Virus record (IMG/VR): IMGVR_UViG_3300047393_000086 | Location: 1 to 64,000 of that record | Length of the DNA: 64,000 nucleotides | Strand: one strand, 5' to 3' | Source of the DNA: a virus | Shown: positions 6,584 through 59,587 of the stretch, piece after piece | Layout: every line of letters begins with the position of its first letter | Position numbering within the stretch: position 1 is the first letter of the stretch | The notes under the pieces: generated by a model | Seen by the model: only the letters and a program-made list of their open reading frames with translations | What the model was told of the DNA's origin: nothing | Databases searched by the model: none | Made by a program: the position numbers and the translations under genes

Positions 6584-7126
6584 TTATAAATTCATAGTGT
6601 GCTTTGTTCCGTCTGCCATACTATAAACAATATGTAGCGGTTTCAGCGAATGCTCTTGTGAATTTAAAATCTTTAAATATTTACTCCCCTTTCCAGGTTT
6701 TAAGTATGCAACTGTCATGTGTGGATGATAATCCGGATAGTCTGACGAATATGGTAGTTCGCATAGAGATTTATTTGCAGCATGTAAATTATCTCCCTTA
6801 ATGTCAAATTTAAGTACATCAAATTTTTCATTTTCAAATAGGGAAATATTGTGGGCTAAACATTCTCCAAAATCAAAGCCATCCAGCTTTTCCCTTACCT
6901 GCTCTAACGATACATCTGGTTTTAAACCATATAATAGGGTACAGTGAGGTTCTGTTTCTAATCCATGACCTCCATTATTATCATCATGATAAATGTCTTC
7001 TGCACTAATTTCTTTATGAATTGCTTTCATCTGCGGAAAGTCAAAATATAACATTGCACAATTAGAATCGTAAGTTGGTTTTTCAGCTTCGTTCATGAAT
7101 TCTTCAAATAATTTTATTCTTTTCAT
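6584..7126 (-). CDS. 2H phosphoesterase, T4 gp57B/Acb1-like
   Basis: Two HxT motifs (HCTLLYG, HMTVAY) and DYPDYHPH; carries the N-terminal tag MKRIKLFEEFMNE. Confidence 0.75.
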   Translation of the reverse strand: MKRIKLFEEFMNEAEKPTYDSNCAMLYFDFPQMKAIHKEISAEDIYHDDNNGGHGLETEPHCTLLYGLKPDVSLEQVREKLDGFDFGECLAHNISLFENEKFDVLKFDIKGDNLHAANKSLCELPYSSDYPDYHPHMTVAYLKPGKGSKYLKILNSQEHSLKPLHIVYSMADGTKHTMNL

Positions 7127-7144
7127 ATCTATTTCTTTTATTAA

Positions 7145-7444
7145 TTATGCTCCAAAATCTAAGTCAAGTGTATCATCCTTTTCATCATCATAATCTCCAG
7201 TTAAATCAACATCTTTTAAATCTATACCTTCAACTTTAATCTTTGGTCTAAAATGACCATCTCCGTCAAAATATGCTTTAAAGCTTCTACCAGAACCTAC
7301 AGCACCACACCATTCCATGAATGCAAACATTTTTAAAAAATCGTCTGCAGTTTCTTGGTCAATATTAGAAATAGTTACATTTAATGTAACTGTTCCGTCT
7401 TCCGCTTCATTTAAGAAGTCTTCGAATACTTTTATATGTTTCAT
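7145..7444 (-). CDS. Hypothetical protein with N-terminal tag
   Basis: MKHIKVFEDFLNEAE; acidic. Confidence 0.7.
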   Translation of the reverse strand: MKHIKVFEDFLNEAEDGTVTLNVTISNIDQETADDFLKMFAFMEWCGAVGSGRSFKAYFDGDGHFRPKIKVEGIDLKDVDLTGDYDDEKDDTLDLDFGA

Positions 7445-8208
7445 TATTTCTTGTTTTCTTTTTTATCGTAATATTCCCAAACCTCATCTAATTGTTTAGG
7501 ATCTGCTAACCAGCTTTCCCACCAGCCTCCACCTTCTTCTTCAACTAAAGAACCATCTTTTAATTTACGATATTCTTTTTCTTTAACTGCAATTTTAAAA
7601 GTTTTTGGTGTAAATGGAAATGATTTAATATAATGCATACAACCAATTTGTTCTTCGCTGCCCTCAGTTATACTAACATGACCTGTAAAACCATAATCTT
7701 TTCCTTCAGGAATCCATACGATTGAATCTAAGTAATATGGTTGACCTTCTTTACCTTCTTTGAAAACCGAACTAAGTCTCATATTTTGAAAAGTTCCAGT
7801 GCCTTCTTCAGCGTCTTCGTATATTGAACAATCTGACCATTCTTCGTCTGTTCCCATGATTCCTTCTCCAAGTGGCTCCTGCGCTAATAATTTCTGTAAC
7901 ACTTGAACAATAACTGCACTCGTAAATGGAGCTGAGCCACCGCTTTGACCAGAATCAGCAAATTTCTTTACTAATGCCATTACTTCAGGCACAAACTCTT
8001 TAATAATTGGAGTCCCACCTTCATCTTTACCTTCAGCATTTTTCATCATAAGATCCAATTCAAATTGAGCCTTATCGACTAATCCTTCATTGATAGAATC
8101 AACAGAGATCATCTTAACACCTTCGTGTAAGAATTTAATTAGCTGAAATTTAACTTTGTTTTCGATTGATTCTGTTAAGAATTCTTCGAATAATTTAATT
8201 CTTTCCAT
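7444..8208 (-). CDS. Hypothetical protein with N-terminal tag
   Basis: MERIKLFEEFLTES; translationally coupled to its neighbours. Confidence 0.7.
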   Translation of the reverse strand: MERIKLFEEFLTESIENKVKFQLIKFLHEGVKMISVDSINEGLVDKAQFELDLMMKNAEGKDEGGTPIIKEFVPEVMALVKKFADSGQSGGSAPFTSAVIVQVLQKLLAQEPLGEGIMGTDEEWSDCSIYEDAEEGTGTFQNMRLSSVFKEGKEGQPYYLDSIVWIPEGKDYGFTGHVSITEGSEEQIGCMHYIKSFPFTPKTFKIAVKEKEYRKLKDGSLVEEEGGGWWESWLADPKQLDEVWEYYDKKENKK

Positions 8209-8554
8209 TTGTTGGGTATTTTACCATTGTATTTCTTGTTAAACTCTTGTCTGTGTTTTTTACAAAACCTAGACCTTTATAAAATTTCTCTAATCGTGAA
8301 ACTGATGTTGCCCCAAAATCTTTTGATGGAGTTAAATATATTGGTTTGTTTTGTGCATTTGCAAATGCAATTACCAAATCCATAACTTCAGTGCCAATTC
8401 CCTCTCCCCTTTTTTCTTTAGGTATTTCAATTCTTGTAAGTTCGACATAATTTGGGGTATTAAATACATCCAACTTAATTCCGAACTTACCCTCTAAATC
8501 TTTAAGGACCATTTCCTCATTTAAGAACTCTTCGAAAAGTTTAACCTTTTTCAT
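8195..8554 (-). CDS. GNAT acetyltransferase with N-terminal tag
   Basis: RGEGIG acetyl-CoA motif and FYKGLGF; MKKVKLFEEFLNEE. Confidence 0.8.
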   Translation of the reverse strand: MKKVKLFEEFLNEEMVLKDLEGKFGIKLDVFNTPNYVELTRIEIPKEKRGEGIGTEVMDLVIAFANAQNKPIYLTPSKDFGATSVSRLEKFYKGLGFVKNTDKSLTRNTMVKYPTNGKN

Positions 8555-9338
8555 CGATTTCTTTTATTTTTTTAATCGCCCAATCGACTCCTTCATCTCC
8601 ACCCCAAATTAACCAAGCAACATATCCATTATCTTTCCATGGTGTTGATTTATATTCTGGATTTATTTCTGAATTTTTTCTATGTCGATTAAATTGTGCC
8701 ATTCTACTAATAACATCTCGGGAAAGCTTTTCTCCTTTTGCCAATTGATTCGCTCTCTGCCATCCAACTGGAGTACCTGCAGTTACCTCATCGCGACCAT
8801 ATTCATCTCTCCAATCAAGTGCTTTCTTTGCGTTTGCTTTTGCAGCAGCTGGATAGTCATTATAAGTTTCTTCAGCCTCATTTAGGGACTCTTCAACTTT
8901 ATAAGGTAACTTTTCGTCATGTCCGCCATCTCTGACCTCTTTAGCCAAATCAGCATCTGCTTTTTGCCAAGTACCATCACCTTTTTCAAGGAATGCATTT
9001 ACACGGGCATAACCCCACTGTTCTTGTGTTGCTCCTGGATGGTGGCTAGAATTCCAAGCTCCCATTCCTCTGCGCATTACAGCTCTAATAATTCCGATCG
9101 GAACTCCAGATTCTTTTGCCTTTTTATCCAATGCTTTATTGATTGCAGCATTATCTAGTTCCTCTCTAGATGTTTCTTTTTCTTCTGCTTCTTGAACATG
9201 TTCTGGAGAATTATCGTGTCCACATTCGTGACAAATATAAACATCATCTCCACCCTCTTCGAGCCTCCATTTCCAGCCGCATTCATCGCACTTTATCTGG
9301 TTCGCCGAAAATTCTTCGAATGTTTTTAGTTTTTTCAT
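8541..9338 (-). CDS. Multi-domain protein (Zn ribbon plus two small domains) with N-terminal tag
   Basis: MKKLKTFEEF, CDEC..CHEC, domains separated by VQEAEE and SLNEAEE; late promoter at 9343-9350. Confidence 0.7.
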   Translation of the reverse strand: MKKLKTFEEFSANQIKCDECGWKWRLEEGGDDVYICHECGHDNSPEHVQEAEEKETSREELDNAAINKALDKKAKESGVPIGIIRAVMRRGMGAWNSSHHPGATQEQWGYARVNAFLEKGDGTWQKADADLAKEVRDGGHDEKLPYKVEESLNEAEETYNDYPAAAKANAKKALDWRDEYGRDEVTAGTPVGWQRANQLAKGEKLSRDVISRMAQFNRHRKNSEINPEYKSTPWKDNGYVAWLIWGGDEGVDWAIKKIKEIDEKG

Positions 9339-9350
9339 AGATTATATATC

Positions 9351-9860
9351 TTATAAATAAGATGATGAAAGGTCTCTCAGATGATTTAAAAGGGATCTGT
9401 CCTCAATTCTATGAATTATTTTCATTCCTTCTTGTTGTCTTTTAAGACCAATTGTTGTTTGTCCAGAATTAAATGTAATTGTATGTAGCTTTGCAATTTT
9501 AGGGTCCATTTCAAAAATACAGCCGGAAAATTGGTCATCTTTTGTCTGTAAAGGGACTGAAACCCAATAAACTCGATGTGAATTCATAATTTTGTTGTAT
9601 TGACCTTTAGGAATTGAGAATGAATCAAAATAAATTAAGGGTGCATTTGTTTTTACCTCAACATTATTTCCATCAATTATCATATCCTTTTCAGAATCAA
9701 AAACATTTAAGGACTCATCGACTTGATGTCCATTATCTCTAAAATGTTTTGCTACAATCTTTTCGCCTAACATTCCTAATAGGACTTTTTTATAATCTAC
9801 TGACATCTTTCCATTCTTTTTTATATACTTTCTCCCAATGTGCTCTGTATTCTCTAACAT
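9351..9860 (-). CDS. Putative PD-(D/E)xK nuclease
   Basis: G.LGE, D..IDG..VEVKT pattern. Confidence 0.55.
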   Translation of the reverse strand: MLENTEHIGRKYIKKNGKMSVDYKKVLLGMLGEKIVAKHFRDNGHQVDESLNVFDSEKDMIIDGNNVEVKTNAPLIYFDSFSIPKGQYNKIMNSHRVYWVSVPLQTKDDQFSGCIFEMDPKIAKLHTITFNSGQTTIGLKRQQEGMKIIHRIEDRSLLNHLRDLSSSYL

Positions 9861-10104
9861 TAATCATTTTAATGGTGTAAGACCATTCCGTATCGTCTTC
9901 AATAATCGTTATGAATAATGTGATTGTTGATGGAGGAACATATGAATCTTTAGCCCACTTAAATAATTTTTGAATATTTCCTTTCTGTCTTAATTTTTTA
10001 GAAAATGTTCTAATATCGCAATCATGCCATACAAAGGGATGGTAGCTCAAAATACTCGAGCTACCATGTCCTATATAACCTATATTAAATATGATTAGTT
10101 TCAT
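9790..10104 (-). CDS. Hypothetical protein
   Basis: ORF coupled to the RNA ligase stop. Confidence 0.55.
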   Translation of the reverse strand: MKLIIFNIGYIGHGSSSILSYHPFVWHDCDIRTFSKKLRQKGNIQKLFKWAKDSYVPPSTITLFITIIEDDTEWSYTIKMINVREYRAHWEKVYKKEWKDVSRL

Positions 10105-11611: not shown

Positions 11612-11613
11612 AC

Positions 11614-12115: not shown

Positions 12116-12655
12116 TTACTTGAATATCTTTCCCACTTCTTCTTTACCAAATTTTGCCTCTAATGCTTCTATTGCCAGTTTTTTATCACTAGAACTTAAT
12201 GCCTTAAAGTTTGCCTCAATCATACTATTATTTTCAGTCGCACTTTTATATTTTCTACCATCATCAATATATTGAGCGTAGAAATCATATGAAAATGCAT
12301 ACTTTAAGAATTTCTCAAGTTCTGACATGTATTTCCCTTCTAATGTCTTTGTTAAATCAGCAACCTTAGTTTTCTTTTTGTTTAAATAGAATTCCCATGA
12401 ATCTGTTGTCATTCTCCATTTAGCAGTCATGAACATGTGAATAACATCACCTTCCGAAAGGGTCACTTGAAATTTAATACCATCACTTGTTGATTGGTCT
12501 TGAATATCTTTAATCCATTTTTCGTCATTAGTCGGTAGGACTCTAGAAACTACGAATTTAGCGTCTTGTAATAGTTCTTCAGGAGAACCCCACTTGCCTT
12601 TTTCTAATTCTGAATAGGTAGTGTATTTTTCAAAGGTCATTATTGCTTTTTTCAT
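12116..12655 (-). CDS. Hypothetical protein with divergent N-terminal tag
   Basis: MKKAIMTFEKY. Confidence 0.65.
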   Translation of the reverse strand: MKKAIMTFEKYTTYSELEKGKWGSPEELLQDAKFVVSRVLPTNDEKWIKDIQDQSTSDGIKFQVTLSEGDVIHMFMTAKWRMTTDSWEFYLNKKKTKVADLTKTLEGKYMSELEKFLKYAFSYDFYAQYIDDGRKYKSATENNSMIEANFKALSSSDKKLAIEALEAKFGKEEVGKIFK

Positions 12656-36758: not shown

Positions 36759-37262
36759 ATGGCATACAACAATAAATATCCTAAGATTCGAAGAACAGGT
36801 GGACCGTATCCACGCAATAGATACGGCGTTTGTTATGAGGGTCTTTCAAGACAACAACGTAGATTATTGTTGGAAAATCCACTAATCAAGGAGAGGGCTC
36901 AAGATGATCAGTTTCTACATATCATTTTTGAAGTTTGTAAGTTTAAACACCAATCACATAAAGACAAATATTTTTATGATTGGTCGACTGGATGTTTTAT
37001 GAAGATTGAGGAACTTGAAGAGAGTTATGATACCATTGATTGGAAATGTGCTTTATCTGGAGAACCTATTCGTTCTAATATAAATAACTTTGATGCTGAA
37101 AACTTCGTGCATCCTGATTATCACGATACTCTTGGTGGTAAAACAGTAGACGGTAGAATTATTAAATCATCAGTTGCCTTCCAAAAACACGTAAAAAAAC
37201 TCCTATTGAATCAACAACAGGAGTTCTTAAAACTTGCCAAAAAGAATTCTAAATTACATTAA
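36759..37262 (+). CDS. Hypothetical protein (rare plus-strand gene)
   Basis: Fills the gap between gp44 and the 37254 ORF; GATAAATA upstream. Confidence 0.7.
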   Translation: MAYNNKYPKIRRTGGPYPRNRYGVCYEGLSRQQRRLLLENPLIKERAQDDQFLHIIFEVCKFKHQSHKDKYFYDWSTGCFMKIEELEESYDTIDWKCALSGEPIRSNINNFDAENFVHPDYHDTLGGKTVDGRIIKSSVAFQKHVKKLLLNQQQEFLKLAKKNSKLH

Positions 37263-38444
37263 TCTAGAGAATCTTTCTTTAACACTTAAGTTTTGATATT
37301 TTGATTCATTCAAAGTATTTAAATATTCTGCCTTTTTAATCAACTCGTTATATTTTGAGTGTAATGCAGTTCCTTCAGAAACTTGCCAATCAAATTTAGA
37401 TTCAATTTCAGTAGCTAATTCATTTAATCTAACTGCTTTAGCTCTAATAACTAAAGATTCTTGTGGGGCTGATTTTTGCTTTAATGTTTCTAATTTTTTC
37501 TTCATTCCAGCAATTGCACCTTTAAGTATATTAATACCTTCTTTATTTTTATCTGGAGATTTTTCAGCATCTGCTAATTCACCTTCTTTAGTTGCGATTT
37601 CGTCTTGCAATTTTTTTATGTTTGGATCAACTTTTGTATCATCAGTAGCTTCGGTATCATCAGTAGCTTCGGTATCGTCAGTTGATTCAGAGTCGTTCTT
37701 TTTAGAAGCTGTTGTATCATCAGTTGATTCCTCGTCTTCGGTTTTTCCAGCTTTTTTATCTTTAGCTGCCTGAGCGTCAGCATCTAATTTAGCTTGAGCT
37801 GCTTTGTCGTCTTCTGCTTTTTTCTTTGCTTCTTTTTTATCATCTTCAGAAGGTTCAAGTTCTTTAATTGCTTCTTGATCTTCTTTATATTTTTGCTGAA
37901 GTTCAGCCATTTTTTCCTTATAAGTAGCTAATTTTTCAGGATCGTCTTCTAATCCTGAGGCTCTTTTAATAGATGCAATTTGTCCAGCAATTTTTTCGTT
38001 ATGAATTGCTTTACCTACAAGGTCTCCTTTTGAACTAAATTTAGCGTCAACCATTTTTTGAAGTTCAGCTGCTTGTTCTTTTGCTTGTTTTGCTTTTGCT
38101 GTAATTTTAGCTTTTTGCTGTGCGTCTGGTGCATCTGTTGCTGCTGCTTCCATATCAGTTACATTTAACTTGATTTTGTTAACTTTAGCTTGTGCCTTTC
38201 TGGCCTTTGGCATCCACCATAACCATTGCATTACAGTGCTTGGTGTAGCTGCATCTGCTTCATTAACTTCGTTAAAATCTTCGCCTTCTAATTCTTCCGT
38301 TAATTCTTTAGCAAGGGTTTCTAAAGAAGTTATAATAGTATCTACGTCATTAGAAATTGTTGGTGTTTCCGTAACAGTTGCTGTTGCTAATTCACCTTCC
38401 ATAATCATAGTATACCACGATTCAAATGTTTTTGTTGTTTTCAT
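37254..38444 (-). CDS. Charged coiled-coil protein with N-terminal tag, probable internal head protein
   Basis: MKTTKTFESWY; many (I/L/V)xE sites; TDDTEA repeats; late promoter at 38475. Confidence 0.65.
   Translation of the reverse strand: MKTTKTFESWYTMIMEGELATATVTETPTISNDVDTIITSLETLAKELTEELEGEDFNEVNEADAATPSTVMQWLWWMPKARKAQAKVNKIKLNVTDMEAAATDAPDAQQKAKITAKAKQAKEQAAELQKMVDAKFSSKGDLVGKAIHNEKIAGQIASIKRASGLEDDPEKLATYKEKMAELQQKYKEDQEAIKELEPSEDDKKEAKKKAEDDKAAQAKLDADAQAAKDKKAGKTEDEESTDDTTASKKNDSESTDDTEATDDTEATDDTKVDPNIKKLQDEIATKEGELADAEKSPDKNKEGINILKGAIAGMKKKLETLKQKSAPQESLVIRAKAVRLNELATEIESKFDWQVSEGTALHSKYNELIKKAEYLNTLNESKYQNLSVKERFSRLM
37636..37680. repeat. 18-bp tandem repeat (TDDTEA)
   Basis: gtatcatcagtagcttcg repeated. 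Confidence 0.8.
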
Positions 38445-38484
38445 GTTTTTAATATATTTTTATTACTAATAGATTATATATCAC

Positions 38485-38550: not shown

Positions 38551-40005
38551 TTAAGCTAAAGTTAATAAGTTAGTTCCTCCATCAATAGTTATGTTAAATT
38601 TAACATATTGAGTTTCTGGGTGGAATCCAGCATCAACTAATGCGAATCTAGATTTAACAGCAACTTTAGGAGCCATAGTTCCTTCAGCGATTGTTTGTAC
38701 TGATTCAGCCATTAAGTAAGGCATAAATACAATACCAGGTCCGTTTCCGTCTCCTTTTCTACCAACTGCGATTGAATAATCATCCCAAGCCATTGTAGGG
38801 TCAGTGTAAACGTTAACTCCAGCTACAGATCCTAATGGGTAGATAGCTCCAGCAGCTTGTGCGAAAGTGTTTGCCATTGGGTTTGCAACGAAACCAGCGA
38901 TTGATTGTAAAACTGTAGCAGTTTGTGGTCCACATACTGCGAAGTTACCAGCTCCTCTTCTACCTCTGTTAGCAATTAAGTTAGCAGCAGCTAAAATTTG
39001 AGAAAGGATTCTTCTGTGTAATGATGGTAAAGTTTCACCACCAACTAAAGATCCAGCAGCAGGTAATTCTAAGTCAAAACCATTAGCTCCGAATGCTTTA
39101 GTTACGTTAGTAGCACCTAAAGTTCTGATTCTTCCTAAGATGTATTGGTTAATACCTTGAGTTAATTCATTAGTTAAAACAGCTTCAACTTGAGCAACAG
39201 CGTCAACTCCGAATTGTTTTAAATCTTGAACTTGTTCTCTTGTTACAGCAGCAGCAACTTGGAAAGTTTCAGCTGAAACTGATTTAGAGAATAAAGATAA
39301 TCCCATGATTTTGTCTGGAGTTTGTTCACCAGCTTCTCTTGAGAATGGAGAACCATTTTCGTCAGCAGCTACAAATCCTTTAACGTGATCTTCTAAAGCT
39401 TTTACTAATTCTACTTTTGGAGCAGCACCAGTAGTATCTAATACTGCGATTGCAGCAGATACAGAACCAGAGTTAGCACCAACTTCAGTAACTTTATAAA
39501 TATCTAAACCATCGATTCTTGAAGTACCTACAAATGTAAATAAGTAGTTATCTTGAGTTTCACCGTTGATTTCAGCTTTATCACCGTCAGTTTTAATGTA
39601 AGTTGGAGAAGTAGAACCAGCTACTTTACCACCTTCGTAAACGAAGTCTAAGTAAGATAATAATCCCATTGGACCAGCCATAGGAACTACAGGTACTAAA
39701 TCTAAACCGATAGTTTGAGCAGCAACTTGCATTGCTAATGGTAATAATGAAGGAGCTTTATCTCCAGAACCGTTAACAGTAGAAACTCCACCAGCACCGA
39801 TAGTACCTGGTAAAACTGTAGCGCCCATACCAAAGATGTTACCAGCAGCACCTAAAGTCATTGTAGATGCATCTTCGTATAATTTGTGGTTATGACAGTA
39901 TTCTGACATCCAAGCTAATTTGCTTGCGTCGTTGATACCTGTCGCAGATTCGATAATCGGAGACCACGTTGCTCTGATTTCTGATTCATTGATTAAATTT
40001 GCCAT
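38551..40005 (-). CDS. Major capsid protein (gp23-like)
   Basis: V.PMAGPMG, EQVQDLK..G.DA, RRGAGNF, PYL...GTMAPKVAVKSRF. Confidence 0.93.
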   Translation of the reverse strand: MANLINESEIRATWSPIIESATGINDASKLAWMSEYCHNHKLYEDASTMTLGAAGNIFGMGATVLPGTIGAGGVSTVNGSGDKAPSLLPLAMQVAAQTIGLDLVPVVPMAGPMGLLSYLDFVYEGGKVAGSTSPTYIKTDGDKAEINGETQDNYLFTFVGTSRIDGLDIYKVTEVGANSGSVSAAIAVLDTTGAAPKVELVKALEDHVKGFVAADENGSPFSREAGEQTPDKIMGLSLFSKSVSAETFQVAAAVTREQVQDLKQFGVDAVAQVEAVLTNELTQGINQYILGRIRTLGATNVTKAFGANGFDLELPAAGSLVGGETLPSLHRRILSQILAAANLIANRGRRGAGNFAVCGPQTATVLQSIAGFVANPMANTFAQAAGAIYPLGSVAGVNVYTDPTMAWDDYSIAVGRKGDGNGPGIVFMPYLMAESVQTIAEGTMAPKVAVKSRFALVDAGFHPETQYVKFNITIDGGTNLLTLA

Positions 40006-40176: not shown

Positions 40177-42108
40177 TTATTTTCTAAATCTTTTTGCAAT
40201 TTCTGCACCAATTTCAGAAGCGTCATAACCTAAAGTATTAACTTCTTCAACAGCTGCTTCATTTACCATAGCGATTTTTTCCATTACTGGTGCAGTTTCT
40301 CTAAGGTCTCTAGTTTGCCAGAAGTTTGCAACTTGGTAAGAAGTTTCTAATCTGTGCATTTTTGATTGTGCAATGATTTGATTTTTCTTAGCTTCAGACA
40401 ATTTAGTCCAAGTTTCATGATATTCACTTGGCATCATTGAAATAACTGCAAGTGTAGTTTCATTTGCAGGTACAGCTCCCATTAATGAGTTAGCCCATAA
40501 TCCTAAGATTTGTCCTTCAGTTAAGTAACCTTTTCCTTCAACTGCATTGATTACTTTAGATTTTTCTTCAGATGTTAAAGCGTTAAATTCATTTACTTTC
40601 TCTTCAGAGATAAATTTAATAAATGATGGTCCTTCGTTTTTCTTGGCGTTAACTTTTTCAACCAATGCTTCTAATTTAGAAGAGATTGAATTTTTGTAAG
40701 CTTCCATAGCATCAACGTCTTTACCAGCAGCATCGCCTTCTCCAGCAAGTTCTAAATCTTTTGCTTTATCTTCAACTTCTTCAGCATCGTATTTTTTACC
40801 ATCAGCATCAATAACGTCTGGAGAAACGTCTTTAGTTTCATCTTTAATATCTTCAGCTGGTAATCCTGCATCTGTTCCGTCGTTTGCTTCTTTGATTTCT
40901 TCACCAGCAGCATCGCCTTCTCCAGCAAGTTCTAAATCTTTTGCTTTATCTTCAACTTCTTCAGCATCGTATTTTTTACCATCTGCGTCGATTACGTCTG
41001 GAGAAACGTCTTTAGTTTCATCTTTAATATCTTCAGCTGGAATTCCTGCTTCGTCTTCTAATAATAGGTTAGAGTTAACAGTTTCAGCAACGTACTCTGC
41101 ATATTCAGTTACTTTCTCTAAGTTCTCTCTTAAATATTCAGTATATTTAATTAAGTTCTCGTAAGAAGTAGAACCTTCATTATAAGATTCAGCTAAATAG
41201 TTAGTGTAATTTTTGATAGCATCAACGCTTTCTGCGATATGCTCAGAATATTGAATACCTTGATCCAATTTCTCTGCAAGACTTTCTGTGTAAGAAATAC
41301 CTTGGTCCGCTTTTTCAGCGATGTGTTCTGAATATGCGATTGATTCGTCTAATTTCTTAGCTAAATAATCAGTATACTCTTTTAATGTTTCTAATTGAGA
41401 ACTAGTTGACTCTGATTCTGTTAAAGAATTCATACCTTCTTTAATAGATTTGATTTCTTCAGAAAGATATTTAGAGTATTTATTAAAATCCTCAACCGTA
41501 ATAAATTTAGACTCTGCCATTTTTGTTTCGTTTATATTTTCGATTGTTTGTTTTTCATCTGTATTATTTATCTCGTAAATAAATAAGTCGTTTCCTTCAT
41601 TAACAAATCCATAAGATTCATTAACTCTTTTTAATTCAGCGTTCTCAAACCCAGGGTCTGCTACTAAATCATAAGTAAATAATTGTTTGATTTTTACAGT
41701 TCCATTAGATTCAACTGCACCAGCTGCTCTACTTGAAATTTGTAAAGGAACTCCAGCATCAACAAGAGCTTTTGCTTGTCTTCCAGCATCAGTATCTAAT
41801 AATCTGATACGTCCTTTAACTTGTTTGGTTGCTGTGTCGTAAGTAAGTTCTTCAATGATGTGTGAAACATTTTTTAAAGAAACGTCAAAAGTTTGTGGGT
41901 GATCTAATTCACCTAAAAGCTTTGATGATTTGATTTTTGCTTGTAGAGCTTCAATCTGTGGTAAGTACTCAGACTCAGTATAGATTCGGTTATTACGATT
42001 TTTCTTATCGATTTCTCCAAAGATACCTTCTAGAACATAGGTTCCACCTTCTTGTTTAAACTCTAACTCTGTAGATGATCTTTCTAGGATCAGTAAGTTT
42101 TTAGTCAT
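40177..42108 (-). CDS. Prohead protease (gp21-like) fused to scaffold-like domain
   Basis: LEGIF..NRNNRIY, LGELDHP, ISSRAAG, DLVADPGF, followed by an acidic coiled coil. Confidence 0.88.
   Translation of the reverse strand: MTKNLLILERSSTELEFKQEGGTYVLEGIFGEIDKKNRNNRIYTESEYLPQIEALQAKIKSSKLLGELDHPQTFDVSLKNVSHIIEELTYDTATKQVKGRIRLLDTDAGRQAKALVDAGVPLQISSRAAGAVESNGTVKIKQLFTYDLVADPGFENAELKRVNESYGFVNEGNDLFIYEINNTDEKQTIENINETKMAESKFITVEDFNKYSKYLSEEIKSIKEGMNSLTESESTSSQLETLKEYTDYLAKKLDESIAYSEHIAEKADQGISYTESLAEKLDQGIQYSEHIAESVDAIKNYTNYLAESYNEGSTSYENLIKYTEYLRENLEKVTEYAEYVAETVNSNLLLEDEAGIPAEDIKDETKDVSPDVIDADGKKYDAEEVEDKAKDLELAGEGDAAGEEIKEANDGTDAGLPAEDIKDETKDVSPDVIDADGKKYDAEEVEDKAKDLELAGEGDAAGKDVDAMEAYKNSISSKLEALVEKVNAKKNEGPSFIKFISEEKVNEFNALTSEEKSKVINAVEGKGYLTEGQILGLWANSLMGAVPANETTLAVISMMPSEYHETWTKLSEAKKNQIIAQSKMHRLETSYQVANFWQTRDLRETAPVMEKIAMVNEAAVEEVNTLGYDASEIGAEIAKRFRK
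40723..41040. repeat. Near-identical 138-bp direct repeat, period 180 bp
   Basis: 40723-40860 versus 40903-41040, encoding PAEDIKDETKDVSPDVIDADGKKYDAEEVEDKAKDLELAGEGDAAG twice. Confidence 0.9.
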
Positions 42109-42177: not shown

Positions 42178-42519
42178 TTATACACCAGCTAATGGATCTT
42201 CCTCTTCTCCACCTTCAGCTTCTTTTTCAGCCTCTTTTTCTTTTTCGGCTTTCTCTTCTCTATAATCGTTAAAAAATTTAACTATAGTAAACATATCCTC
42301 TTCAGTAAAGGCAGTGTTTCCATATACTTCGTAGAAATATTCTTTAAATTCTTTTTCACTCTTACATGACATGATAGCACCTAAAATTTCAGTTGATTTA
42401 ATTTCTTTTCCTGAGTCAAGAGTAACATCATCAACTATTACTTTAGAATCTTCACCTGCTTCGATCGCGTCTTCTTTAAGTGAACCTGTGAATTCCTCAA
42501 ATGTTTTAATTATTCCCAT
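42178..42519 (-). CDS. Prohead core-like protein with N-terminal tag
   Basis: MGIIKTFEEF; lies between portal and protease, the position of gp67/68 in T4. Confidence 0.6.
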   Translation of the reverse strand: MGIIKTFEEFTGSLKEDAIEAGEDSKVIVDDVTLDSGKEIKSTEILGAIMSCKSEKEFKEYFYEVYGNTAFTEEDMFTIVKFFNDYREEKAEKEKEAEKEAEGGEEEDPLAGV

Positions 42520-42542
42520 TTTATTTTTTTATTTTTATTTAA

Positions 42543-44147
42543 TTACATTCCTCCCATCATTGCCATTGGATCTTCAGGCTCTGGTTTTTCAGCTTCTTTT
42601 GCCGCATTTCTTGCTTTATAAGCTTCGTTTGCCGCTTTATCATCTGGAGATAATTTAAGGTATCTATCAACTAAGAATTCCATATCGAAGTATGGTGATT
42701 CTTCCATAGTTAAAGGATCAGTCTTAACCAATGAATCTTTCATAGTTCCAATAAAATCAAGTCTTTTGCTCATAATTTCCATTTGCTTTAATTCAGCAAA
42801 CATATTTTCTTCATTAAATCTTAATGCAATTTGGGTTCTAAAACCTGCATCTTCTTTAAATTCAGGAAATTTAAGACACATTTGTAACCATAAAGGTTTA
42901 ATCAATATCTCTTGAAATGAGCTACGTAAACGATTAATAAACTTAGCAAATTTAATTTCATCTCTAATCATTCCATCAGCTTCCATTGCAAAATCTCCGC
43001 CTCCATCTTCATACATAAATCTAGAGTATGGAATTTTTGAAACTGCTTTAAGTTTATCTGAAAAATATTTTAATGATTCTGTGTCGCTTAATTCTGGACC
43101 ATCTCCACCAAGAGTTTCAATCTCTGGTTGTTCTCCGTCCTTACTAGGTAACCAATATTCTTTATTGAATTGTAACATTGGTTTTCCGTTCGTTGTAAGA
43201 GAAGCACTGTCCCAATCAAAATCAACAACCTCTTTATAGTTACTCATTAATTGAGAAAGCGATTGTTTTGCTCTTGTTTTAGATTTACCTCCAACTGGAA
43301 TAATAAATTTCATTCTATAAGAAGAGTTGGTAACAGCCCAAATAACTCTGGTATGCTCCATAATTCTCATTAAATTAAATGAACGGATTAATCTTTCAAG
43401 GTAAGAAACCCTTGACGCTGTAGTAATTGAACTATATGAAATGTATACAATTTGAGAATCGTATAATTTTCTTTCTTTTAATGGATCATCTTTAAACTGA
43501 ATCCATACTTTTTTACCATCTTCATGGTTATATCCTGGTACTAACGTAATTGGATCAATTTCCTTAAAACCAATAACTTCTGTCATCTCTGGATTATAAA
43601 TAATCTCGAATGATAAATAACCATCAATTAACCATTTTCTAAAGAAATACCATGCAGATTGGTCCATGTTAAAACCAAAATACTGGTAAATATCTCTATA
43701 TGCTTTATTTAGATATTTTTGAACTTCATCAGAAACTTCCATTCCGATAATTTCTGGATTGGCTATAAAGTTTTTATTATCGAATACGATTGATTCATCA
43801 CATAAAATATCTAAGATGTCTTCGATCTCATCATGCTGTGAAAACGCTCTAAGTTCATCTCTTTTACCTTTATAATTTTGGTCAAAGAATGGAATATTTT
43901 TACGCATTGTAGTATCAGCCATTGAAAGAGCTGCAAATGCGCCATACATATCATCATTGTCCAGTCCTAATGGATTCATTTGGCCGTAACCAATTGCATC
44001 TTCTACTGGACCAATTGCTTGAGATTGTCTAAGTACCAAATCATCATAATACATACCAAAAGAAGATAGCTTCTTTAGTGTATCACTTAAGACAAAAGGT
44101 TTTTTTCCAGTACTCAATGGACCATTTCTTTGTACAAATCCTGCCAT
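42543..44147 (-). CDS. Portal protein (gp20-like)
   Basis: FRKWLIDG, SYLER.I..FN, EYWLP..G...IETLGG, RDEIKFAKFI.RLR. Confidence 0.93.
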   Translation of the reverse strand: MAGFVQRNGPLSTGKKPFVLSDTLKKLSSFGMYYDDLVLRQSQAIGPVEDAIGYGQMNPLGLDNDDMYGAFAALSMADTTMRKNIPFFDQNYKGKRDELRAFSQHDEIEDILDILCDESIVFDNKNFIANPEIIGMEVSDEVQKYLNKAYRDIYQYFGFNMDQSAWYFFRKWLIDGYLSFEIIYNPEMTEVIGFKEIDPITLVPGYNHEDGKKVWIQFKDDPLKERKLYDSQIVYISYSSITTASRVSYLERLIRSFNLMRIMEHTRVIWAVTNSSYRMKFIIPVGGKSKTRAKQSLSQLMSNYKEVVDFDWDSASLTTNGKPMLQFNKEYWLPSKDGEQPEIETLGGDGPELSDTESLKYFSDKLKAVSKIPYSRFMYEDGGGDFAMEADGMIRDEIKFAKFINRLRSSFQEILIKPLWLQMCLKFPEFKEDAGFRTQIALRFNEENMFAELKQMEIMSKRLDFIGTMKDSLVKTDPLTMEESPYFDMEFLVDRYLKLSPDDKAANEAYKARNAAKEAEKPEPEDPMAMMGGM

Positions 44148-47409: not shown

Positions 47410-48207
47410 TTATTTATCTATTTTATTTTTACAATTGTCAAAATGCCATTGTTTCATTGCATATAATCCACCAGTCTTTTCACAATGAGGACATTTAACT
47501 ATAGGAGCTTTTCCTGTATTTTTACCTTTCTTAGAATTTGATATTTTAAGTCTGGTTTCATCAGATCTTTTTTTATCTTTCCAATATTTTGGATTATTAT
47601 CTCCTATCTTAGACATTGACATTTTTTCCTTTGATTCTTTACTATGTGTTTTACCTTTAAAGACACTAACCATTCCTTTTTTACCATTAGAAATGTTTTG
47701 TATTGATTCTTCAGATCTTTTGCCAGAGGCATTATTATTACCTAATAATGAATTTGAAATTTTGTTTTTTTCATCTTCTGTTCTAACTCTATTCCTTGAC
47801 TGCCATAATAGATTTTCTTTGGCGTTTTGACTTATACCTCTATCCTTACTTGCCTTTCCTATTTTTATTTTCGATGATTCTGTATGCGTTTTTCCAGTAA
47901 AATCAATTCCAGATGAAGTTTGCGTTTGTAAATTATAAAACATTGAATTGTTTCCTACATCATACATTTTATGTAACTCTATTTCATGTTCTAAAGCATC
48001 TATTCTATTATCAAATATTTTTAGAACATCATACTCGAATCTTTCTGGATTGACATGTTGTTCTTTAATAAATTCTTGATTTGAACTGCTCGAAAAGTAT
48101 AGAAATCCTATATCATGATGTGGTTCTATCTCTGAAGACCTAACCCCTATATACTTTTTATTAGTTAGCAAATTAGTAATTATGTATGTGTAATGGTATT
48201 TTTTCAT
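47410..48207 (-). CDS. GIY-YIG homing endonuclease with NUMOD3 repeats
   Basis: YTYIITN..KKYIGVR, multiple H/RSEE.K.KIS repeats, C-terminal CPHC..WHFDNC. Confidence 0.88.
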   Translation of the reverse strand: MKKYHYTYIITNLLTNKKYIGVRSSEIEPHHDIGFLYFSSSSNQEFIKEQHVNPERFEYDVLKIFDNRIDALEHEIELHKMYDVGNNSMFYNLQTQTSSGIDFTGKTHTESSKIKIGKASKDRGISQNAKENLLWQSRNRVRTEDEKNKISNSLLGNNNASGKRSEESIQNISNGKKGMVSVFKGKTHSKESKEKMSMSKIGDNNPKYWKDKKRSDETRLKISNSKKGKNTGKAPIVKCPHCEKTGGLYAMKQWHFDNCKNKIDK

Positions 48208-48255
48208 ATACTATATATCCATATTATACCTTGTAACTTGCCATTTAGTATATCA

Positions 48256-55657: not shown

Positions 55658-55660
55658 AAT

Positions 55661-56416: not shown

Positions 56417-56480
56417 GTGCTAATATTTATAAATTTAATTATTTAAGTATTATAAGGGGTATTAGCATTTTGTTTCACAT

Positions 56481-56511
56481 AAAAAAACCTGCTACAAAGT
56501 AACAGGTTTTT
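56481..56511 (-). terminator. Intrinsic terminator
   Basis: AAAAACCTG..CAGGTTTTTT. Confidence 0.7.
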
Positions 56512-56562
56512 GTTGAAACTCTTAAGAGTCGGTCCTCCGATTCTATCCTGAGGAGTGGTTCT

Positions 56563-56991
56563 TTATTTACTTCCTACTGATTTATCTTTAAATTTTATAT
56601 ATTTTCTAGCGACCATGAATCTAATAAATTCATAGATGTCTTTTGGAGCTTCTGCGGTACCATTAGAATCCGTAACACTAGCGATCCATTTACCGTCTTT
56701 AAACTGATAAGTCCATGTTGCGCCTCCGAATTTAGTTGTTAATATACCATCTTGTATTGATTTTTCTTTTACTTGAATACCAAGATCTCTTAATGCCGAT
56801 GCAGCATTTGTTAGAATTTCGGTAGAATACTCTGATGCATTTGAAATAACAGTTTGGTTATCTTTCCATTCTGCAGAAGCTCCAGTAGATCCGCTATATC
56901 TTCCAATAGATCTTCCATTTCCTGCTGCGGATTGAAGAGCCATGTCATTGGATTCATCAATAAATTGTTCAAATAGTTTAATGTGTTTCAT
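56563..56991 (-). CDS. Hypothetical protein with N-terminal tag
   Basis: MKHIKLFEQFIDES. Confidence 0.7.
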   Translation of the reverse strand: MKHIKLFEQFIDESNDMALQSAAGNGRSIGRYSGSTGASAEWKDNQTVISNASEYSTEILTNAASALRDLGIQVKEKSIQDGILTTKFGGATWTYQFKDGKWIASVTDSNGTAEAPKDIYEFIRFMVARKYIKFKDKSVGSK

Positions 56992-57009
56992 AATTTTTTT
57001 TGCTTTATA

Positions 57010-57345
57010 TTATTTTTCGTTAGCTCTACACCAGTTAAGTGCATCTTTAACAGTTTCTAATTCTTCGTCATATCCGCTTAAATCATAGATTCCAAGAATA
57101 GTTTCGCCATCATCATTTAAGTAGAATGAAAACTCTTCCATTTCTCCTTCGTGTCTATCTGCTTTTGATTCTAATCCATTTGCAAAATGTACAATATGTG
57201 GAAATTCTTCATCTTTGTCTAATCCCCAAACTACTTTTTCTACGTTTTTAGCTTTAGATAATTCTTTAAATAATTTAACAAGAATTTCTGGTTTTGGACT
57301 AGAAGCTTCTGTTACAAAATCTTCAAATAATTTAATATGTTTCAT
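57010..57345 (-). CDS. Hypothetical protein with N-terminal tag
   Basis: MKHIKLFEDFVTEAS; late promoter at 57370. Confidence 0.7.
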   Translation of the reverse strand: MKHIKLFEDFVTEASSPKPEILVKLFKELSKAKNVEKVVWGLDKDEEFPHIVHFANGLESKADRHEGEMEEFSFYLNDDGETILGIYDLSGYDEELETVKDALNWCRANEK

Positions 57346-57441
57346 AATTTTATTTATTTTTATTATAGTTATATATCTTTTTAATTTGATATGTAAATAT
57401 AATCAATTAAAACGATCTGGTAAAATTTTTTAGATAAATTT

Positions 57442-58491
57442 TTACCTTTTTTGAAATTTGTTTATATTTTGATTAATTATTTCTCCATTTTCTATATCAA
57501 TGGATCTATTAATAACTAAATCTTCTTTCCATTTTTTAGGTTTCATGATAGTATCTAAGTATGGAAGTAATGCACTTGAAATTTCACGAGATGCTGCATT
57601 CCATAAATATGTTGGTGTATGGTCTACTGAATAGTATGAAATTCCTCTTTCTAATTTAATTATCGGTTCTTCAAAAGAGGTCGGAACTGCAAAAAAGAAT
57701 CCCATACCACTATCACAGCTAATATCTATTATTGCTGCATTTTTCTTTAAAGAATCTAATTGTTCTTGAGTTTCAATATAATTTAAGGGTGCATTGACGT
57801 TTTGTAAAATACCGTTAAAAATTATATCGGCATTATTTAGGTCTTTACTAAGATCGTCATTTTTAAAAGATTTATAGTATACATCTGGATTTTTATCAGC
57901 AACTAAATGAGATTCTCTTTGAGTGTATACTATAATATTGTTAAATCCACGACCTTGTAGAGCATATATAGCTCCTCTACTTACTGAACCATATCCTAAG
58001 ATTACTACGTTTTTTCTAGGACCATAATGTCCATCCATTCCTTTCAATTCTAAAAAGTGTAGAACTCCAGCGTATCCTGCTAATTCATTGTTACGATAGA
58101 AAATATGAAGTTTTCCATGCTTATTTTCAATATTCATTTCCTCCCATGCCAACAATGTAAGTTTTTTCCTAATAGCAAGATCCGTAATATCTCGTTGTTG
58201 GACTGCATGAGTCCATCCGCATAATATCCCTCCAAATTTCATTTTTTCAAGATCTGTTGCTATTGGTTTTGGAAGTATAATAATATCGCAATTATAAAGA
58301 GATTCTCTAGACCCTAAGGTACATCCCCAACTTTCTAGGTCAGCGTCAGTGTATCCATAATCCTCTCCATATCCATGTTCGAAGATTAATTCTTTAAGTA
58401 AAGATGGATCTATATTTTTAATATGATCAGGATAGATTGGTAATCTTTTCTCGTTCTCTTTATACGACGTTTTAAATACTCCTGTCTTCAT
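57442..58491 (-). CDS. N5-(carboxyethyl)ornithine synthase-like, AlaDh/PNT family
   Basis: KENEKRLP, E.GYG, GWTHAVQ, RNNELAGY.GV, GYGSV.RGA, DISCD, VDHTP. Confidence 0.8.
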   Translation of the reverse strand: MKTGVFKTSYKENEKRLPIYPDHIKNIDPSLLKELIFEHGYGEDYGYTDADLESWGCTLGSRESLYNCDIIILPKPIATDLEKMKFGGILCGWTHAVQQRDITDLAIRKKLTLLAWEEMNIENKHGKLHIFYRNNELAGYAGVLHFLELKGMDGHYGPRKNVVILGYGSVSRGAIYALQGRGFNNIIVYTQRESHLVADKNPDVYYKSFKNDDLSKDLNNADIIFNGILQNVNAPLNYIETQEQLDSLKKNAAIIDISCDSGMGFFFAVPTSFEEPIIKLERGISYYSVDHTPTYLWNAASREISSALLPYLDTIMKPKKWKEDLVINRSIDIENGEIINQNINKFQKR

Positions 58492-58495
58492 ATTG

Positions 58496-59587
58496 TTACT
58501 TAATATTAAAGAAGTATTTATATCCATCTTTTGCCTTAGGATCTGTTAATACAGTATAATCCATTGGCCATTGAGAAGATTCAATTTCTTTTTTGAATTT
58601 TGGATAGTAATTTTGGTGGCCAGGTACTACATATTTTAAATAAATATCCTCTAAGAATTCGTTGTCTAAAGATTCTCCATAAAAATCTTCGTACATTGCT
58701 TTGTAAACCTCACACATTTTAACACTTCCAAGTCCAGTTGCAGATGATGTTTCCATAATCCACATTTTTCCTTTTTTATCTACAACAATATCTAACGCCC
58801 ATAAATCTAGGTCTAAGAACGTTTTAATATCTTTACAGATTGACATTACATTTTCAATAAATTCAGGATCTACTTTGTTTTGGTCTTGATAAACATAAGT
58901 AAAACTGATTTTCTCTTCTGCTGTTTTTGTTTTAATTGAACGATCGTCCTCAATTCTCGGTACTCTTTCATTAATAACAAAAATCTTGTCTCTACACAAC
59001 ATTACTCTGTATTCTCTTGCAAAATCTATAAATTGACAGAATAAATCAAATTCGTCTTTGCTATCTTCTAATTCTTTGGCGCTATCAAACTTTTGAATTC
59101 CTAGTCCGCTATGTCCATCTTTTATTTTTGCAATTACTGGAAAACCAACATCTCCATTAATAGCCTCTTCTTTTGTAAAAACAGTATTTGGAAGCCAGTC
59201 AAATTTTGATGATGCTTTTGCAAATTTTACTTTGTCTCCTGAAAGTTGAAGCAATTCTCTTTTATTATAAAGATTGTCATTTTTAATTCCTTTATTTTTT
59301 AAAAACATCTCTGCTTCAGGGTGATTTGGTCCTCCAAATCCTCCATAATAAAGAATTGGTACATCAGAAGGTACCGAAACTTTATCATCTTCGAAATCTT
59401 CTTTTGTTGCGTAATTTAAGAATAGGTTACCTTTTGCGGCAATATTGTATTTCTTTTCGCGGCCATTAACATCACCTGAAGTTGCATGAATGTCGTTTGA
59501 CATCATAATCCATGCTACTTTTTTTGCGTATTTGTTTTTAAGATTTTCTTTGTATACGAATTCTTCAAAAAGCTTAATTGGAATCAT
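58496..59587 (-). CDS. RimK-like ATP-grasp ligase with N-terminal tag
   Basis: DKVKF, FPVIAK..GHSGLGI, QFID..EYRV, ALDIV..WIME; MIPIKLFEEF; late promoter at 59610. Confidence 0.75.
   Translation of the reverse strand: MIPIKLFEEFVYKENLKNKYAKKVAWIMMSNDIHATSGDVNGREKKYNIAAKGNLFLNYATKEDFEDDKVSVPSDVPILYYGGFGGPNHPEAEMFLKNKGIKNDNLYNKRELLQLSGDKVKFAKASSKFDWLPNTVFTKEEAINGDVGFPVIAKIKDGHSGLGIQKFDSAKELEDSKDEFDLFCQFIDFAREYRVMLCRDKIFVINERVPRIEDDRSIKTKTAEEKISFTYVYQDQNKVDPEFIENVMSICKDIKTFLDLDLWALDIVVDKKGKMWIMETSSATGLGSVKMCEVYKAMYEDFYGESLDNEFLEDIYLKYVVPGHQNYYPKFKKEIESSQWPMDYTVLTDPKAKDGYKYFFNIK

Follow-up and report, generated by a model that had tools for sequence, protein, structure and literature searches.

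A 13-residue N-terminal leader with the consensus M-K-x-[IV]-K-L-F-E-[EQD]-F-[ILV]-x-E is shared by 15 otherwise unrelated ORFs among the approximately 90 genes of a 76,991-bp viral contig, the first 64,000 nucleotides of which form the window. This leader is probably (estimated probability about 0.7) a lineage-specific version, longer by three residues, of the T4 capsid targeting sequence (CTS), that is, an address-and-cut label for proteins packaged in the phage head. Capsid targeting had been proposed in a preliminary description of this DNA, and is supported at the sequence level by the alignment with the T4 leaders, an S77 protease-scaffold protein, tagged ORFs in the head module, late-type motifs, tRNA synteny and a hydrophobic-x-Glu boundary in front of the cargo.

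Sequence and distribution of the leader

All eleven ORFs for which the leader had been claimed (starts at 7126, 7444, 8208, 8554, 9338, 12655, 38444, 42519, 56991, 57345 and 59587) were found on the minus strand, with the quoted peptides at their starts. The earlier estimate of about 11 tagged proteins was too low for the contig, however, since a motif scan of the whole contig raised the total to 15, four of them outside the window. All were on the coding strand, and none was on the opposite strand. In a six-frame scan of the contig the tag core matched 13 times, always on the coding strand and in 12 cases at an ORF start. A looser scan added tagged ORFs at 73726 and 73398, where Tyr takes the place of Phe7, and at 76067, which has a short form of T4 length ending in LNE. 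Within the window, the DNA pattern for K-x-F-E-x-F was observed nine times compared with 0.15 expected, and none of 100 shuffles reached nine. The ORF starting at 12655 is real and its homologues retain the same atypical start, but it is a doubtful carrier and probably lies outside the tagged set.

Codons inside the tag vary synonymously (TTT/TTC 31/16 and 23/22; four different codons for Leu; both GAA and GAG), indicating that the tag is conserved as a peptide and not as DNA. The DNA upstream of the tagged genes was not conserved.

In the contig and three relatives together, 47 tagged ORFs represented 29 unrelated body families. The tag pattern matched 9–16 times per relative, on the coding strand only, and across the four genomes the tagged genes were clustered and showed fast turnover. 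Glu13 was present in 37 of the 47 ORFs, and was absent from the tags at 9338, 38444, 42519 and 59587. Among homologues of the 2H phosphoesterase cargo, 118 of 119 had [LIVMF]-x-E just before the folded body, whatever the leader. In 109 this site preceded the body anchor by 8–9 residues, a spacing that held across at least five different leader types, and one leaderless homologue begins exactly at this boundary.

Table 1. Features of the window discussed in the text.
Feature	Position	Strand	Evidence or remark
Tagged cargo, Acb1-like 2H phosphoesterase, 180 aa, last operon gene	6584..7126	-	Pfam, HxT motifs, AF2, Foldseek
Tagged cargo, acidic ORFan, 99 aa	7145..7444	-	Tag MKHIKVFEDFLNE; mature pI 4.1
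Tagged cargo, Tad3 homologue, 254 aa, N-terminal extension of ~44 residues	7444..8208	-	Pfam, phmmer, Foldseek
Tagged cargo, small GNAT-like protein, 119 aa	8195..8554	-	Tag MKKVKLFEEFLNE
Tagged cargo, DUF5824 protein, 265 aa, first operon gene	8541..9338	-	Pfam DUF5824 42.8 bits
Late-type motif GATATATA, head of five-gene operon	9343..9350	-	12 nt upstream of start 9338
Doubtful member, 179 aa, MKKAIMTFEKY	12116..12655	-	Atypical tag without Glu13-type ending
Tagged highly charged coiled-coil protein, 396 aa, directly after capsid gene	37254..38444	-	Tag variant MKTTKTFESW; late motif 38 nt upstream
Late-type motif upstream of 396-aa tagged gene	38475..38482	-	GATATATA copy
Major capsid protein, gp23 family	38551..40005	-	Pfam Gp23 6.8e-42; 24% identity to T4 gp23
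gp21-like (S77) prohead protease fused to gp22-like scaffold	40177..42108	-	Pfam Peptidase_S77 2.1e-11
Tagged acidic protein, 113 aa, between portal and protease	42178..42519	-	Tag MGIIKTFEEF; T4 gp67/68 prohead-core position
Portal protein, gp20 family	42543..44147	-	Pfam Portal_T4 3.4e-69
Tagged cargo, ORFan, 142 aa	56563..56991	-	Tag MKHIKLFEQFIDE
Tagged cargo, acidic ORFan, 111 aa	57010..57345	-	Tag MKHIKLFEDFVTE; late motif 32 nt upstream
Late-type motif heading 57345/56991 unit	57370..57377	-	GATATATA copy
Tagged cargo, ATP-grasp-like protein, 363 aa	58496..59587	-	Late motif 30 nt upstream
Late-type motif upstream of ATP-grasp-like tagged gene	59610..59617	-	GATATATA copy

Predicted cargo proteins

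The bodies behind the tag had been described as unrelated, and family searches agreed, giving 2H/Acb1, Tad3, weak GNAT, DUF5824 and weak ATP-grasp matches beside ORFans. Every GNAT match of the 119-aa protein was under its Pfam cut-off, as were the weak ATP-grasp matches of the 363-aa protein, whose homologues in relatives carry the canonical tag MKRIKLFEQFIAE. The C-terminal part of the DUF5824 protein matched genes of haloarchaeal and other tailed viruses whose annotations name a prohead protease, a portal or a capsid protein. The sole family match of the 99-aa ORFan was phrog_10928, of unknown function, and the 142-aa ORFan had none in Pfam, PHROGs or NCBIfam. The mature tagged proteins are mostly acidic (pI < 6 in 11 of 15).

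Tad3 blocks the ThsB sensor of the Thoeris defence, and Acb1 destroys the signals of CBASS. The 254-aa product of the five-gene operon is a clear Tad3 homologue, with a Pfam score of 68.9 bits (PF25185; cut-off 27), a Tad3 family profile E-value of 9.6e-46, and a Foldseek E-value of 1e-15 at 37–38% identity. In phmmer, its residues 45–249 matched residues 5–190 of PDB chain 9b7d_B (E 1.8e-35). The body is thus of the same family as free Tad3 in the ThsB-Tad3 complex (PDB 9b7d), but the solved chain has no counterpart of the leader-bearing extension. This extension ends in a nearly invariant N-E right before the Tad3 body.

The 180-aa product scored 30.4 bits for 2_5_RNA_ligase2 and 28.7 bits for Acb1 (PF23474) in Pfam, both with a cut-off of 27, so that its assignment to Acb1 is marginal and it is best described as Acb1-like. 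It has two H-x-T motifs, HCT at 61 and HMT at 136. The AF2 model had a pLDDT of 86.8, but residues 1–15 were below 50, indicating that the tag is not part of the 2H fold. Foldseek with this model retrieved 2H enzymes including Acb1 (7t27), the best being Usb1 and a poxvirus cGAMP phosphodiesterase. The enzyme could alternatively be a LigT-type RNA-repair phosphodiesterase. When compared by sequence and predicted fold with T4 Acb1 (gene 57B; PMC9117128), it has the 2H fold and the two HxT motifs in common, with a marginal Pfam score, and BLAST to T4 57B matched the second HxT motif alone. A tRNA array adjoins the five-gene operon, as is also the case for ipI and 57B in T4 (synteny; also PMC9117128). 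None of the papers found describes Tad3 or Acb1 as packaged in the virion.

The head module

Two tagged ORFs are located among the head genes, and in both the tag is conserved in dozens of relatives, down to 32–46% capsid identity. The product of the ORF at the gp67/68 position has a mature pI of 4.2, compared with 4.1 for T4 gp67, and the tag core is kept in 78 homologous ORFs of relatives. The coiled-coil protein encoded after the capsid gene is a probable prohead-core or internal protein, and 23 homologues were found with K-T-F-x-x-W/F at their start.

Between these two ORFs lies the fused protease-scaffold gene, whose product presumably recognises and cuts the tag. The protease motifs LGELDHP and SSRAAG are the aligned counterparts of the His and Ser motifs of T4 gp21, tblastn matches cover both gp21 and gp22 of Aeromonas and Acinetobacter phages, and the scaffold part is rich in [ILV]-A-E sites. 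The capsid protein has a conserved K-L-Y-E-D-A site at about residue 45, in the N-terminal propeptide region. Where T4 gp23 is cut, the aligned residue is not Glu, and just L-Y-E occurs nearby. No cultured relative, virion proteome or cleavage data were found, and among deposited phages the best capsid match, from a metagenomic record without annotation, had 52% identity.

Promoter motifs

All 16 copies of the late-type motif GATATATA are on the coding strand, and the opposite strand has none. The motif is located 12–38 nt upstream of the tagged genes starting at 9338, 38444, 57345, 59587, 70144 and 76067, and six of the 16 copies directly precede tagged units (Fisher p = 0.004). For 13 of the 15 tagged genes it is the nearest motif upstream, and it is also found ahead of the genes for the capsid, the protease and the sheath. 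From this we infer that the tagged units would belong to a late promoter class. The proposal that tagged units start just after this motif held at 9343, 38475, 57370 and 59610 but not at 12655, where a middle-type TGAAAC-N17-TATAAT is found instead, 39 nt upstream of the start.

Comparison with T4 and other phages

The principle of an address-and-cut leader is already published for T-even phages, and the T4 capsid targeting sequence was reportedly described by Mullaney and Black in 1996. It is found on IPI, IPII, IPIII and the Alt propeptide, and is removed by the prohead protease gp21 (PMC9026906, PMC3012670, PMC5694885). Tyr4 and Phe7 of the T4 leader are needed for targeting, and Ile8 and Glu10 for processing (PMC9026906). 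In the T4 record, the leaders of ipII and ipIII end in Y-Q-E-F-I-A-E and that of gp23 in F-L-T-E, each followed by A. When Y-Q-E-F-I-A-E is aligned with F-E-E-F-[ILV]-x-E, these key residues correspond to Phe7, Phe10, [ILV]11 and Glu13. Both leaders have Glu as the P1 residue, an aliphatic P3 and aromatic P4 and P7 residues. In both phages the short N-terminal leader is the sole likeness among otherwise unrelated proteins, late ones in T4 and putatively late ones here, the head module has genes for an S77 protease and for a scaffold core, and the cargo locus adjoins 57B/Acb1 (here the Acb1-like gene) and tRNA genes.

There are also clear differences. The T4 CTS has 10 residues, while the leader found here has 13 and begins with an additional M-K-x-[IV]-K, and the strict tag pattern was not found in T4, cyanophage S-RIM50 or Lak-A1. 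Fifteen tagged ORFs are present in 77 kb, compared with three internal proteins and Alt in all of T4, and the protease is fused to the scaffold, unlike in T4. The cargo is mostly acidic, whereas T4 IPI–III are basic (pI 9.0–9.7), although a basic character is not strictly defining, because Alt and gp67 are not basic. Unlike the T4 internal proteins, the cargo as predicted from its sequence includes enzymes and a Tad3 homologue. With 24% capsid identity to T4, this environmental clade is far from Tequatrovirus.

Hypervariable internal-protein loci in T-even phages were reportedly described by Repoila et al. in 1994. The tagged loci resemble them as a fast-changing arsenal in hotspots, with the leader alone in common and, in the present case, putative injection and counter-defence. 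Each of Ip1, Ip2 and Ip3 blocks a GmrSD type IV restriction enzyme of its own (PMC12373910). The known targets of the T-even internal proteins are all type IV restriction enzymes, while the recognisable cargo described here would act on signalling defences (Thoeris, possibly CBASS).

In phiKZ-like and SPN3US-like giant phages, an S80 prohead protease processes ejection or inner-body proteins at S/A-x-Glu, and the paralogues gp53 and gp54 of that system have an identical 15-residue N-terminus (PMC5694885). A Glu-type cut by a head protease, which removes propeptides from packaged and ejected proteins, is predicted here as well. The giant phages, however, have no single short leader common to many unrelated proteins, and both the protease branch and the cut motif differ.

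Alternative explanations

The leader may be read by a phage machine other than the prohead core, serving as a modifying-enzyme site, a chaperone or docking site of tail or baseplate, or a timing or degradation signal. The acidity of the mature cargo, unlike that of the T4 internal proteins, would fit such a role, and the evidence that links the tag to the head is all drawn from sequence. This explanation is nevertheless unlikely: no radical-SAM or similar modifying enzyme was detected among approximately 45 contig ORFs scanned, two conserved head-module ORFs bear the tag, the tag matches the T4 signal at the experimentally tested residues, and it ends in a Glu-type site of the kind that this protease family cuts (PMC5694885). 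Less probable again is a removable propeptide that holds enzymes inactive or soluble until it is cut, with no routing to the capsid. The fixed hydrophobic-x-Glu boundary before the body across lineages and the position of the tag outside the AF2 fold would be expected of a propeptide, but many tagged proteins are small non-enzymes, and the same tag is present on scaffold-like head-module proteins. Moreover, the only protease of the contig with this site preference is the prohead protease, and that of T4 works inside the closed prohead (PMC5694885).

That the shared start has no peptide role, being an mRNA-level element (a translation start region or cassette recombination site) or the result of common descent or chance, appears very improbable. 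The clustering and quick turnover of tagged genes are as cassettes would show, but free third codon positions and unconserved upstream DNA contradict this reading, and the excess of pattern copies over expectation, the complete strand bias and the origin of the bodies in different Pfam families and folds speak against it as well.

Proposed mechanism and biological meaning

If the leader is a capsid targeting sequence, the tagged proteins would be made late in infection, alongside the head proteins. The tag, probably a short amphipathic helix with Ile4, Phe7, Phe10 and Leu11 on one face, would dock the cargo on the scaffold core forming at the portal, and the core with its cargo would become enclosed by the capsid shell. 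The scaffold-fused gp21-type protease would cleave on the C-terminal side of the Glu in the [ILV]-x-Glu ending, at Glu13 in canonical tags and farther downstream in the head-module variants. The mature cargo would be retained in the head and exit with the DNA at the next infection.

The cargo comprises a Tad3 homologue, an Acb1-like 2H phosphoesterase and many fast-changing small ORFans, and its use in counter-defence is therefore likely. Since the tag is present on some 15 unrelated and putatively late proteins, among them relatives of two known immune-blocking proteins, this uncultured T4-like phage probably delivers preformed counter-defence proteins into the host along with its DNA. If this reading is true, counter-defence would likely be in place ahead of any phage gene expression.

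Identification of the N-terminal tag

The preliminary description had reported a common N-terminal peptide on 11 ORFs, and in the ORF check on the contig all 11 opened with the peptides, and at the positions, that it had quoted. A six-frame scan of the contig for the tag core gave 13 matches, all on the coding strand, of which 12 lay at an ORF start. Relaxing the pattern brought in three more: two ORFs (starts 73726 and 73398) in which position 7 is Tyr, and one of 775 aa (start 76067) whose leader, of T4 length, ends L-N-E. Thus 15 ORFs among about 90 genes of the contig are tagged, and none on the opposite strand. The consensus is M1, K2, x3, [IV]4, K5, L6, F7, E8, [EQD]9, F10, [ILV]11, x12, E13, with Glu13 present in 37 of the 47 tagged ORFs of the contig and three relatives.

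Several other origins of such a peptide were considered and rejected. Chance would give 0.15 copies of the core DNA pattern in the window, as estimated from shuffles, against nine observed. A DNA-level element is at odds with the synonymous codons inside the tag, which vary freely, and with the upstream DNA, which shows no conservation; it is the peptide that is conserved. Divergence of paralogues would leave related bodies behind the tag, but the tagged bodies are of different folds and families. A signal peptide should be hydrophobic, whereas the tag is charged and amphipathic.

The motif scan proposed in the preliminary description gave 9–16 pattern matches in each relative, all on the coding strand, against 0–1 in the controls. 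Related loci totalling 1.14 Mb contained 61 copies of the tag core on the gene strand and a single copy on the opposite one. The exact tag matched more than 119 contigs in IMG/VR; 61 of the 80 exact-tag loci fetched have genes in common with the contig, with capsid identity down to 32–46%. In T4, cyanophage S-RIM50, Lak-A1 and two huge metagenomic phages the strict pattern did not occur or was no more frequent than in controls, indicating that the exact tag is clade-specific.

Leader and body in other lineages

By BLASTP, the 47 tagged ORFs of the contig and the three relatives (170–236 kb) fell into 29 body families, 21 of them singletons. The 2H phosphoesterase cargo has 673 homologues, and 83 of the best 120 bear the 13-residue tag. 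Other members of these 120 have very different leaders, for instance M-I-K-L-L-D-L-L-N-E, M-K-x-I-K-D-Y-x-x-W-L-F-E and x-F-K-R-M-Q-E-L-A-G-I-I-x-E, and one leaderless homologue begins exactly at the boundary between leader and body. In 118 of 119 homologues from this best 120, [LIVMF]-x-E precedes the conserved start of the body, in 109 of the 119 by 8–9 residues.

Neighbouring unrelated ORFs have a local leader in common in other lineages too. One IMG/VR contig of another T4-like lineage (L233) has eight or nine [FY]-S-[DEQ]-F-[IV]-x-E starts within a single 20-kb locus, closer to the T4 leader; two further such contigs (L229 and L235) carry x-F-K-R-[ML]-Q-E-L-A-G-I-I-x-E on the 2H enzyme and on another ORF, and two R-M-Q-x-L-A-G-x-I-x-E starts were found in one other-lineage locus. 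Local leaders common to neighbours, together with a hydrophobic-x-Glu boundary that stays fixed while the leaders change, show that leaders track the phage lineage and bodies the cargo, the joint always being a Glu-type site.

Comparison with the T4 capsid targeting sequence

In the T4 record, the internal proteins IPII and IPIII start M-K-T-Y-Q-E-F-I-A-E and are cut before Ala, the IPI leader is related but has 19 residues, and gp23 is cut after F-L-T-E. When T4 Y-Q-E-F-I-A-E is aligned to F-E-E-F-[ILV]-x-E, T4 residues 4 and 7, reported to be important for targeting, correspond to Phe7 and Phe10, and residues 8 and 10, important for processing (PMC9026906), correspond to [ILV]11 and Glu13. 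According to this alignment the tag is the T4 capsid targeting sequence (CTS) with three extra residues in front. Exchange of the Glu for Asp in T4 prevents processing, whereas targeting still takes place. The T-even internal proteins are a diverse defence-countering set with the CTS as their sole common part (PMC3012670), and the CTS is possibly a general route by which T4-like phages load various proteins (PMC9026906).

The gene order is also reminiscent of T4, where ipI adjoins 57B (Acb1) and a tRNA array (T4 record; PMC9117128): the five-gene tagged operon ends with the Acb1-like gene, beside a tRNA array. Mature cargo is mostly acidic here, unlike T4 IPI–III. The N-terminus of T4 57B (M-M-E-F-K-D-F-S-T) resembles the IPI leader (M-K-T-F-K-E-F-T-S-T), and T4 Acb1 could conceivably carry, or have carried in the past, a leader for head loading; no report of its being packaged was found.

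The head module and the presumed reader of the tag

The viral contig is 76,991 bp long, the window being its initial 64 kb, and nearly all window genes lie on the minus strand. The head and tail module in the window is of T4 type. Its capsid protein is 24% identical to T4 gp23, and the top match among deposited phages (52%) is in an unannotated 462-kb metagenomic phage; hundreds of IMG/VR relatives have portal identities of 83–97%. Most genes have an A-rich stretch before the start codon and lack a Shine-Dalgarno sequence (e.g. 7127-7170 and 42520-42560). Such starts are typical of Bacteroidota-type translation initiation, and may hint at the phage host.

Coordinates of features in the contig (L225, its portion past the window) and in the T4 record (L082)
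Feature	Coordinates	Strand	Remarks
Tagged operon	9338-6584	-	
Tad3 homologue	7444-8208	-	
DUF5824 cargo	8541-9338	-	
Major capsid protein gp23	38551-40005	-	T4-type module
gp21-type S77 prohead protease	40177-42108	-	At start of 643-aa ORF
Portal gp20	42543-44147	-	T4-type module
Large terminase, sheath, gp15-like protein, clamp loader			Within T4-type module
775-aa tagged ORF	73740-76067 (L225:9740-12067)	-	
Cytidylyltransferase-like ORF	76090-76926 (L225:12090-12926)		
T4 ipI	L082:13592-13879		
T4 57B	L082:13953-14411		

Over its first ~170 residues the 643-aa ORF can be aligned with T4 gp21, and the alignment takes in the L-G-E-L-[DN]-H-P and S-S-R motifs, the sites of the catalytic His and Ser. 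The remainder is scaffold-like, and tblastn matches span gp21 and gp22 of Aeromonas and Acinetobacter phages. Cleavage by gp21 is always after Glu, as at ITE-6 and LTE-619 of Alt (PMC5694885), and the [ILV]-A-E sites in which the scaffold part is rich are, judged by their sequence, of the kind that gp21 cuts. The capsid protein's own cut site was not fixed by alignment with T4 gp23. The acidic middle of the same ORF contains a near-perfect tandem duplication of ~50 residues (P-A-E-D-I-K-D-E-T-K-D ... G-E-G-D-A-A-G, twice).

Two head-module ORFs are themselves tagged. One is an acidic ORF of 113 aa between portal and protease, the place of T4 gp67/68, and 78 homologous ORFs in relatives carry the tag as well. 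The other is a charged 396-aa ORF after the capsid gene, with a K-T-F-x-x-W variant that is also found on 23 homologues.

Late-type motif and timing of expression

The late-type motif GATATATA was found in 16 copies on the coding strand and none on the other, upstream of the capsid, protease-scaffold and sheath genes and of some homing endonucleases. It lies 12–38 nt upstream of six tagged genes (Fisher p = 0.004), and is the nearest upstream promoter-like motif for 13 of the 15. Of the 11 tagged proteins that had been described as late, the one starting at 12655 is the main exception; its atypical tag and a middle-type motif (TGAAAC-N17-TATAAT) 39 nt upstream make it a doubtful member. The homing endonuclease genes preceded by GATATATA (at window positions 709-739, 3701-3735 and 48207-48219, minus strand) are one HNH and two GIY-YIG/NUMOD3 genes, which would thus be expressed late.

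Tagged proteins

The tagged bodies had been called unrelated, and they do belong to different Pfam families and folds or are ORFans: in the window, a 2H phosphoesterase, a Tad3-family protein, DUF5824, weakly GNAT-like and ATP-grasp-like proteins, a charged coiled-coil protein and several ORFans. For most of the small cargo proteins Pfam, PHROGs and NCBIfam gave no function.

The Acb1 and 2'-5' RNA ligase Pfam scores of the 2H phosphoesterase barely exceed their cut-offs. In its AlphaFold2 model (pLDDT 86.8) residues 1-15 are below 50, which places the tag outside the fold, and Foldseek retrieved 2H enzymes including a poxvirus cGAMP phosphodiesterase, a Burkholderia phage phosphodiesterase and Acb1 of phage FBB1. 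BLAST against T4 57B matched 13 residues only, so Acb1 membership rests on Pfam and the fold; a LigT-like role in RNA repair is a possible alternative.

Another cargo gene of the operon clearly encodes a Tad3 homologue, as seen from comparison with chain B of the ThsB-Tad3 complex 9b7d (phmmer E 1.8e-35; family profile E 9.6e-46) and from Foldseek (E 1e-15, identity 37–38%). In type I Thoeris, the sensor ThsB is bound and blocked by Tad3 (PMC13728456). The first ~44 residues of the homologue, absent from the solved chain, include the tag and a helix as well as an almost invariant N-E immediately before the Tad3 body, possibly a second site of cleavage.

Tad3 and DUF5824 domains, separate genes of one operon in the window, are fused (410–422 aa) in the Tad3-family homologues P0139, P0154, P0156, P0160, P0168 and P0184. 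In haloarchaeal tailed viruses, Roseobacter phages and others, the matches to residues ~158–263 of the DUF5824 cargo carry prohead protease, portal, head morphogenesis or capsid annotations; this C-terminal domain looks like one that travels with head proteins.

Beyond the window, the cytidylyltransferase-like ORF ends I-M-T-F-E-Q-F-I-N-K-D-I before its stop, followed by the late motif and the 775-aa tagged ORF, in which an internal stretch near residue 440, M-K-T-K-F-I-Y-E-S-F-S-E-F-V-E-N-K-L-N-E, resembles a leader. The tag-like end and the internal stretch possibly represent remnants, or else joints, of a polyprotein loaded into the head.

Implications for T4-like phages

The putative loading of tagged proteins into the capsid agrees with all sequence-level tests that could be made. 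Ip1, Ip2 and Ip3 each inhibit a different GmrSD enzyme, and the T4 internal proteins whose targets are known, three in all, inhibit type IV restriction enzymes without exception (PMC12373910). In the literature searched, which mostly did not extend to subscription journals, no paper was found reporting packaged Acb1 or Tad3, the 13-residue tag, or ready-made delivery of inhibitors of signalling defences. In the contig the T4 principle appears to recur in an environmental clade distant from T4: the leader is longer, the cargo proteins are far more numerous and for the most part acidic, and the cargo points towards signalling defences. It is a tentative proposal, with a probability of roughly 0.4, that the capsids of a large environmental T4-like clade deliver a kit, readable from sequence, of preformed proteins that inhibit signalling immunity, among them a ThsB blocker of Tad3 type and a signal nuclease of Acb1 type. 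In that case Thoeris and CBASS would be neutralised ahead of all phage gene expression, the full injected proteome could be catalogued from sequence alone by means of the tag, and the tagged ORFan families, which number in the dozens, would be new proteins of counter-defence.

Should the tag function as it does in T4, the capsid-loading principle would extend to a lineage about as distant from T4 as T4-like phages go. The packaged and injected proteins of widespread uncultured phages could then be read from their genomes, giving a short list of candidate counter-defence proteins, mostly ORFans, and suggesting that inhibitors of Thoeris, and possibly of CBASS, arrive ready-made rather than being expressed after entry.
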